The notes below the pieces were generated by a model. That model made no database searches. It saw only the letters and a list, made by a program, of their open reading frames with translations, and was not told the DNA's origin. Of a stretch of 64,000 bases of DNA, positions 58,881-59,324 are shown in pieces. Origin of the DNA: Saccostrea echinata (lineage: Eukaryota); assembly GCF_033153115.1 (NCBI RefSeq), contig NW_026889769.1:2852001-2916000 (forward strand), written 5' to 3'. The stretch's first letter is position 1. Every line of letters starts with the position of its first letter. The position numbers were made by a program, and so were the translations under genes.

Positions 58881-59324
58881 TCAGCTTTCCCTACAAAACC
58901 GACAACAAACACGTCGGTAATATGGCATACTACACAGTAACATCTTCTCCCCCGGGCCGATCATAAGGGAACAGTCTGGAGTCATGTTGAAGCACCATCC
59001 TCTTTTTGAAAAATACTCTAGTGTTCTTTGTGGAGTGTCGTCAAACATACTCTTTTTGATGACTAGAAGACAAAAGAAAATTGTATTTTATAATAAAAAA
59101 AAAAAGTTAAAGCATTTAACTTTTTGATGGACAGTCTTTGATTAAGTATCTTAGTCATGGCATAGCTTTTTGAAGAAGAAGAAGTAAAAAAGGGCTTTTC
59201 ATTGGTACTTTGAAATTTTGATAAAATTCAAAAAAAAAAAAAAATTACATTACTTACATAGCGCATTTGAAATCGTAAATAGAACCAGGCAGATAGTGGT
59301 TAGCACACAAAAAGACCTGTTCAT
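58881..59324 (-). CDS. Small secreted cysteine-rich prepropeptide (signal + pro-region-KR + PLAC/ShK-like 6-Cys peptide), 82 aa; coding exons 59324-59258 and 59062-58881
   Basis: MNRSFCVLTTICLVLFTISNA|LFIKKSMFDDTPQRTLEYFSKR|GWCFNMTPDCSLMIGPGEKMLLCSMPYYRRVCCRFCRES*. Phase-1 intron with GTAAGT donor and TTTTCTTTTGTCTTCTAG acceptor; upstream acceptor TTTGGTTTGCAG 11 nt before the ATG; AAAATG start context. Confidence 0.8.

Follow-up and report, generated by a model that had tools for sequence, protein, structure and literature searches.

A spliced gene for a predicted six-cysteine, PLAC-like peptide in the oyster Saccostrea echinata

Background

The PLAC domain is normally the C-terminal module of a larger protein, and in the secreted DYF-4 protein of Caenorhabditis elegans one of its cysteines is required for localisation (PMC8221789; this and the other sources are cited for the passages covered). 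The ShK fold is known from channel blockers, in which the dyad consists of an adjacent Lys-Tyr pair, and it can be antimicrobial, as in jellyfish aurelin; in the passages covered of the same 2019 paper, secreted single-domain ShK toxins in molluscs are reported only from a blood-feeding snail (PMC6409789). The sea anemone Nematostella has a neuropeptide, ShK-like2, whose precursor is laid out like the protein described here (bioRxiv 2020.05.28.121442). In Mytilus, the MgCRP-I peptides are encoded by at least 67 loci and combine a conserved pre-pro region with a hypervariable mature region (PMC4558851). In this paper we describe a gene on the minus strand of a 64,000-nucleotide stretch of the S. 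echinata genome (contig NW_026889769.1, positions 2,852,001 to 2,916,000; hereafter the window, to which plain coordinates refer), which encodes the predicted precursor of a peptide with six cysteines.

The peptide gene is real and spliced. Its family is small and uncharacterised; in it, a precursor of a known kind carries, as a free-standing unit, a module that usually ends large matrix proteins. No description of stand-alone PLAC-like peptides in bivalves was found in the literature searched, which left most subscription journals outside its scope.

Sequence data and searches

Transcript evidence was taken from five public runs (X1-X5; three samples, two studies) which are stored as contigs. 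They are not recorded as RNA and are only presumed to be RNA; their contigs skip GT-AG introns. Contig depths were not used for ranking isoforms or tissues; depth cannot rank isoforms. The genome searched comprises 923 Mb, and the searches for paralogs give lower bounds. Splicing of the paralogs was read from genome sequence.

Results

Gene structure and transcripts

A first-pass annotation of the window, made from the letters alone, had proposed two minus-strand exons joined in phase 1; the splice sites were found as claimed, and contigs cross the junction. Exon S (59258..59335, 78 nt) carries 11 nt of untranslated region (UTR), the ATG at 59324 and 22 hydrophobic codons, and ends at a phase-1 GTAAGT donor after 59258. 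A GT-AG intron of 195 nt (59063..59257, phase 1), which is spliced out in contigs, leads to the acceptor before 59062. Exon P (58869..59062, 194 nt) encodes 20 further pro-region residues up to a dibasic KR (59001..59006), the predicted convertase site, and then a predicted mature peptide of 39 residues (58884..59000) starting at 59000, followed by the stop codon (58883-58881) and 12 nt of 3' UTR. The predicted signal peptide (59324-59262) lies within exon S; its cleavage after 21 residues is based on hydrophobicity (Kyte-Doolittle maximum 2.8 over nine residues) and on small residues at -3 and -1. The proposed layout of signal, pro-region ending in KR and peptide adds up as expected (21 + 22 + 39 residues), giving a predicted precursor of 82. 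The mature peptide has a mass of about 4.6 kDa and a net charge of +2, and its cysteine spacing, C-X6-C-X12-C-X8-CC-X2-C (6,12,8,0,2), agrees with that given earlier.

A scan for signal-like exons ending in phase 1 over both strands of the 64 kb (128 kb of strand) had exon S as its one match. Across all six frames, the window contains a single match to a loose PLAC-like six-cysteine pattern, whereas 150 shuffled windows contain none.

Exon P is fully covered, without variant letters, in all five runs. The 59258|59062 junction, for which spliced reads had been asked, lies within contiguous contig pieces in X2 (record 8), X3 and X4, and also in X1 record 3, where the short side is only 30 letters; it was read off the contigs directly and is absent from the automatic joint table. 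Downstream, a 3'-UTR intron of 1938 nt (56931..58868) begins 12 nt past the stop, and its joint, 56930-58869, is present in four of four runs, with the same loose end also in X4. The terminal 3'-UTR exon is placed at 56769..56930. As the contigs continue into a DHHC gene on the opposite strand, its probable end was set from poly(A) signals near 56795 and 56769.

The gene also extends past the window end. The window part of the 5' intron (59336..64000) leads to two non-coding exons, U and V. A loose end at 59335 in X3 and another at 59062 in X1 match L004:3510-3525, in exon U (L004:3502-3608, 107 nt, 3.5 kb past the window end), and a loose end at the 59062 acceptor in X5 matches L004:9357-9372, in exon V, which is mapped at its 3' end (L004:9349, 9.3 kb past the window end). 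Contigs show only the last 30-33 nt of these exons, and the 5' boundary of U is inferred from its acceptor. Both have GT donors and in-frame stops with no later in-frame ATG; they are therefore 5' UTR, and because of these stops the ATG at 59324 is the first in-frame start. The two coding exons thus stand as first described, but the gene is larger than that pair, with 5' non-coding exons 8-14 kb upstream, a 3'-UTR intron and an optional signal exon.

Exon S is a 78-nt cassette exon, since U joins S in X3 whereas U joins P directly in X1 and V joins P directly in X5. It is included in X2, X3, X4 and X1 record 3, and skipped in X1 record 2 and X5, that is, in two of five runs. The skipped forms would encode at most a 55-residue product without a signal, from an internal ATG of exon P. 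Two further features of the 5' end were observed. In X2, a T>C change (plus strand) at 59337 destroys the AG acceptor of exon S, and the 5' end is unspliced from 59625. A short upstream open reading frame (ORF) begins in exon U (L004:3518-3502), and would, once spliced, run on into S (59335-59326) and terminate 1 nt short of the main ATG, where it might lower translation.

The exons joined to P also bear on the possibility that a long ADAMTS/papilin-like gene ends in P, the usual place of a PLAC module (PMC8221789). All three exons seen joined to P were identified: the signal exon and two exons with in-frame stops. Over the 50 kb that follow the window, the sole open frame of at least 150 residues, in L008, is mobile-element-like by eye, and true ADAMTS-type PLAC exons stand elsewhere in the genome, for instance L029 behind thrombospondin-like exons. 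The first-pass annotation had named such a tail as one outcome that would undo it; it is largely refuted, and we give it next to no weight. A longer multi-domain protein read from a CxxC in the last codons of exon U was also rejected, there being an in-frame TGA upstream and no in-frame ATG.

Paralogs in the same genome

The gene had been presented as a single hidden gene; it is one of at least four paralogs. When exon P was searched against the genome, three matches were obtained at E up to 10: its own locus, L002 and L003. L003, on the same contig 1.65 Mb away, combines a signal-like exon with a GTAAGT intron in phase 1; it has RR in place of KR and spacing 6,11,8,0,2, and its second exon opens with the same four residues as exon P. 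A PLAC profile gave 25 genome matches, 8 above and 17 below the cut-off (best 150 of 214 candidates scored). Among those below it, L033 (spacing 11,15,8,0,2) and L042 (9,15,8,0,2) repeat the two-exon design; their signal-like exons lie 3.6 kb and 1.2 kb upstream, respectively. The three paralogs map to C20:4.56 Mb, C28:6.39 Mb and C64:3.53 Mb. All have a signal-like exon ending in phase 1 at 1.2-3.6 kb upstream, where the background rate is one match per 128 kb. All three stop 3-9 residues past the last cysteine. Each paralog, used as a query, finds only itself or weak matches, and no close or tandem copies of the peptide gene were found; as far as these lower-bound searches show, the family consists of dispersed, single-copy genes.

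L002 is possibly a fifth member. Its PLAC-like exon (L002:1447-1701, minus strand; C13, about 1.486 Mb; spacing 12,15,8,0,2) has splice-like sites on both sides and looks internal, and a signal-like exon lies 16 kb upstream. L027, with PLAC-like exons behind a metalloprotease-like exon, and the ADAMTS-like L029 were excluded from the family, and the remaining profile matches were likewise left out of the count. In the former region (L046:8862-10000 / L027; C25, about 24.883-24.884 Mb) three PLAC-like exons stand in tandem downstream of the metalloprotease-like exon, which we take, by its motif, to be the start of a reprolysin-type metalloprotease, so that this is presumably an ADAMTS-like gene with repeated PLAC modules.

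Counterparts in other species

A word-indexed search with exon P alone of a 5.8-billion protein collection, at 32-104 residues, returned no candidate, not even the gene's own protein; annotation therefore probably misses such genes. A two-sequence profile run against 1.84 billion representatives of any length matched two proteins, P0025 and P0024. A four-paralog profile gave four proteins among six candidates, including A0A8W8M8I3 of Magallana gigas and P0005, and the last profile search gave three matches among 14 candidates, of which the sole addition was P0040. This last entry is a frame-shifted database variant of an L003-type gene, its frame lost after the second cysteine by allele or assembly error; it was left out of the folding alignment.

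Counterparts were thus found for four of four genes: P0025 for the peptide gene, K1REG3 for L003, A0A8W8M8I3/K1QS58 for L042 and P0005 for L033. P0024 clusters with K1REG3 (99 residues; signal, pro-region, RR and peptide), which UniProt names as ShKT-domain-containing, and A0A8W8M8I3 has 93 residues; these M. gigas entries, of 93-99 residues, are full signal-pro-peptide proteins. All named relatives come from this one oyster species. No paper was found on K1QS58/A0A8W8M8I3, and K1REG3 was not searched by accession.

Retention of the cysteines in relatives, which had been proposed as a check, was found: P0025 keeps all six and the KR, and eight of the nine residues before the first cysteine, KR included, are the same. 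Searched back against the genome, P0025 has the peptide locus as its best match (E 1.9e-11).

These data bear on whether the gene is decaying or non-functional, with most of its transcripts lacking the signal exon. Skipped forms do occur in X1 and X5, the X2 variant removes the acceptor AG of exon S, the upstream ORF terminates just 1 nt short of the start codon, and two TGA codons stand where the counterpart reads on. However, the six cysteines and KR are intact and conserved, X2 retains the whole coding sequence by way of its unspliced 5' end, and the stops lie past the last cysteine, close to which the three paralogs also end. We consider decay very unlikely.

Charge and copy number bear on a secreted host-defence peptide, comparable to jellyfish aurelin or the cysteine-rich peptides of mussels. 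The layout of signal, pro-region, dibasic site and six cysteines is common with MgCRP-I (PMC4558851), aurelin is a precedent for an antimicrobial ShK fold (PMC6409789), the core diverges fairly fast (18 of 34 residues shared with P0025), and four arginines fall in the C-terminal half of the peptide. Yet the net charge of +2 falls to +1 in P0025 and ranges from -5 to +3 across the family, two of the three paralogs being acidic; the genes lack close or tandem copies in the searches above, and exon P is without variant letters in the five runs. Host defence is possible, but we think it a minority prospect.

Relation to PLAC and ShK

The peptide had been called PLAC/ShK-like. The PLAC-like spacing stands; formal membership does not. 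Pfam PLAC (PF08686) is the sole Pfam match, at 17.9 bits (E 0.0054) against a gathering cut-off of 26.4; P0025 scores 15.3 bits, two paralogs 17.6 each, and the third has no match. All six cysteines align with nine PLAC exons of the same genome, seven of which have the spacing 6,x,8,0,2 (the other two 8,8,8,0,2). In all nine, a candidate acceptor in phase 1, the phase of exon P, lies just ahead of the first cysteine. With a profile of these exons the score of the peptide was reached by 6 of 500 Cys-fixed shuffles and that of P0025 by 2 of 500; for seven relatives the number was 0-159.

One alternative is that the peptide is a free PLAC module which binds or tunes matrix or membrane partners of ADAMTS/papilin-type proteins without activating a receptor. 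It would agree with the spacing and acceptor phase shared with the PLAC exons and with the dependence of DYF-4 localisation on a PLAC cysteine (PMC8221789), but the score is under the PLAC cut-off, the second loop is longer (12 residues against 8), and regulated peptides are the ones that typically have a pro-region in which a dibasic site is conserved. Moreover, a phase-1 end is in any case frequent among signal exons. We regard this alternative as unlikely.

Pfam ShK (PF01549) had no match at E up to 10 for the peptide or the relatives tested, and the locus is not among the 148 ShK matches in the genome (best 150 of 204 candidates scored). A model built from a 14-row alignment (pLDDT 81.9) has three short helices, and Foldseek returned three rows at E up to 10, two of them, from this PLAC-biased model, with the ShKT fold: 6ckd (TM 0.55/0.58, root-mean-square deviation 2.8, 37 columns, E 2.7) and 1xta, the CRISP natrin (TM 0.58, E 8.5). 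In an atlas search, comparison of features pointed to ShK clusters (0.85-0.88) and comparison of structure, for P0026, to ADAMTS-like clusters, in both cases below threshold. Searches of the Protein Data Bank by sequence gave nothing relevant and no solved relative for PLAC, and the peptide had no sequence match to any solved structure. The adjacent Lys-Tyr dyad is absent: the sole lysine, Lys19, precedes a methionine, and the core of P0025 has no lysine, although a dyad in space is still possible. PLAC-like is the most fitting label for the peptide; its fold is probably of ShK type, and formally it belongs to neither family.

The two ShKT-fold rows, the UniProt name of the counterpart of a paralog and the atlas leads would suit an ShK-like potassium-channel blocker serving as toxin or deterrent. 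The Foldseek E values, the missing Pfam match and the position of the locus outside the genome's ShK matches argue against it, as does a lysine that is not beside a tyrosine; to our knowledge, oysters have no venom apparatus. This explanation is doubtful, and in our estimation a little less likely than the matrix module. The earlier proposal of a defence, toxin-like or signalling role is thereby narrowed, its toxin and defence parts being weakened by the lack of an ShK profile match and of the dyad, by the charge of +2 and by the lack of tandem copies.

Neighbouring sequence

At 55855-57144, a DHHC palmitoyltransferase gene (plus strand, Pfam E 3e-28) lies tail-to-tail with the terminal exon of the peptide gene. 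The positions of the poly(A) signals (minus strand, about 56795/56769; plus strand, 56810/57008) suggest overlapping 3' ends, and contigs cross both genes. An intronless frame for a rhodopsin-type G protein-coupled receptor (GPCR; 61301-62368, plus strand, Pfam 7tm_1 E 1.7e-22), with contigs in four of four runs, sits antisense within the 8-kb intron between exons U and S. The GPCR as a paired receptor was considered and is unsupported: by eye, no GPCR-like frame of at least 150 residues was seen in the 10-20 kb, mostly upstream, around each of the three paralogs. A high-copy repeat at 60570-60720 drew hundreds of contigs. Other plus-strand neighbours are RHINO, VPS51-like and CDC50-like exons (5383-6090, 19492-27459 and 38166-42132, respectively), housekeeping genes which serve as synteny markers.

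Discussion

We favour the explanation that the gene encodes an endogenous signalling ligand, neuropeptide- or hormone-like, in the form of a KR-released six-cysteine peptide of PLAC/ShK-type fold, and hold it to be slightly short of an even chance. It is favoured over a toxin or antimicrobial because the genes are single-copy, conserved and not consistently cationic, and because in three of four pairs with a counterpart the cysteine core has kept more of its residues than the pro-region has (21/33 vs 9/25, 23/42 vs 9/29 and 33/40 vs 12/24 identical residues, core values which the six fixed cysteines inflate), the reverse of the MgCRP-I pattern. The ShK-like2 neuropeptide may, by analogy, serve as a precedent.

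On such a route the precursor would enter the secretory pathway, where, from standard knowledge of that pathway, the signal would be removed after Ala21; a convertase would cut after KR and release the 39-residue peptide, in which three disulfides would form. The target would be a receptor or channel on the animal's own cells. The gene may have originated when a PLAC-type exon was placed behind a signal-peptide exon. Secretion may be turned off by skipping of exon S, since transcripts that lack it would encode at most the short product without a signal.

Several findings weigh against the signalling ligand, or against the family and fold on which it is built. The runs with the S-P junction all come from one study (two samples), which may include the source sample of the genome, and the only run of the second study, X5, shows the signal-exon-skipped form alone. 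A single counterpart sequence, P0025, the one member of its cluster, represents the peptide gene in other species; it reads past the position of the stop, so the C-terminus is not conserved, and with 18/34 identities and a 2-residue indel this pair has the lowest core conservation among the four, below that of the nine residues that precede the core. L033 and L042, two of the four family genes, have no dibasic site directly before the peptide. Pairs within the family share 5-6 identical non-Cys residues each, and the unity of the family lies mostly in its cysteines and gene design. P0026, whose score against the PLAC-exon profile was reached by 159 of 500 shuffles, does not rise above them, and as nine of the 14 rows of the folding alignment are PLAC domains, the model leans towards the PLAC fold. 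In the passages covered, the peptide is not among the oyster ganglion neuropeptides of PMC8398477, although a member under another name is possible there. From the same source, clionin, CCCGS, CLCCY and CCWamide were considered as relatives and rejected, their cysteine frameworks being different, and the single 'CCRFC' match in its supplement falls within a multi-peptide GWE-type precursor.

More tentatively still, the signalling ligand may represent an undescribed messenger family of oysters, in which PLAC, itself a variant of the ShK fold, was freed from ADAMTS/papilin-type proteins, received a signal exon and a convertase site, and had its secretion switched by exon skipping. In the literature passages covered, no defined ligand of PLAC was seen; if such a family exists, it would offer the first direct way to learn the binding partners of PLAC, as a naturally free PLAC-like peptide of 4.6 kDa is open to synthesis, nuclear magnetic resonance and target search. 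That a related fold stands free in a filter feeder suggests roles other than venom, and the family adds candidate regulators or effectors for a farmed animal group.

Comparison with known systems

The closest entries, K1REG3 and A0A8W8M8I3/K1QS58 of M. gigas, share the precursor design and cysteine framework, but they are uncharacterised database entries and, as counterparts of L003 and L042, not of the peptide gene itself. Mytilus MgCRP-I is likewise bivalve and secreted, with a KR/RR pro-region, six cysteines and a phase-1 intron in the signal region; its framework is C-C-CC-C-C, whereas that of the peptide is C-C-C-CC-C (PMC4558851). The latter order is found in the conotoxin K-superfamily (framework XXIII), which is also helical, but whose members are cone-snail venom peptides with bonds I-II, III-IV and V-VI (PMC4278219).

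Nematostella ShK-like2 and single-domain ShKT proteins resemble the gene in signal, propeptide, dibasic site, six cysteines and alternative 5' ends (bioRxiv 2020.05.28.121442; PMC6409789), and the model suggests a weak resemblance of fold. In ShKT peptides the disulfides link C1-C6, C2-C4 and C3-C5. They differ in that the peptide ends in CC-xx-C and has neither a Pfam ShK match nor the Lys-Tyr dyad, and isoforms of the peptide gene lose the signal peptide, where those of ShK-like2 swap it. With the PLAC domains of ADAMTS, papilin/lacunin and DYF-4, the peptide shares six cysteines in about 40 residues, the spacing 6,x,8,0,2 and an aromatic pair before the CC. It differs from them in its second loop, of 12 residues compared to 8 in all nine PLAC exons of its own genome, and in being the whole mature product of an 82-residue precursor rather than the tail of a large protein.
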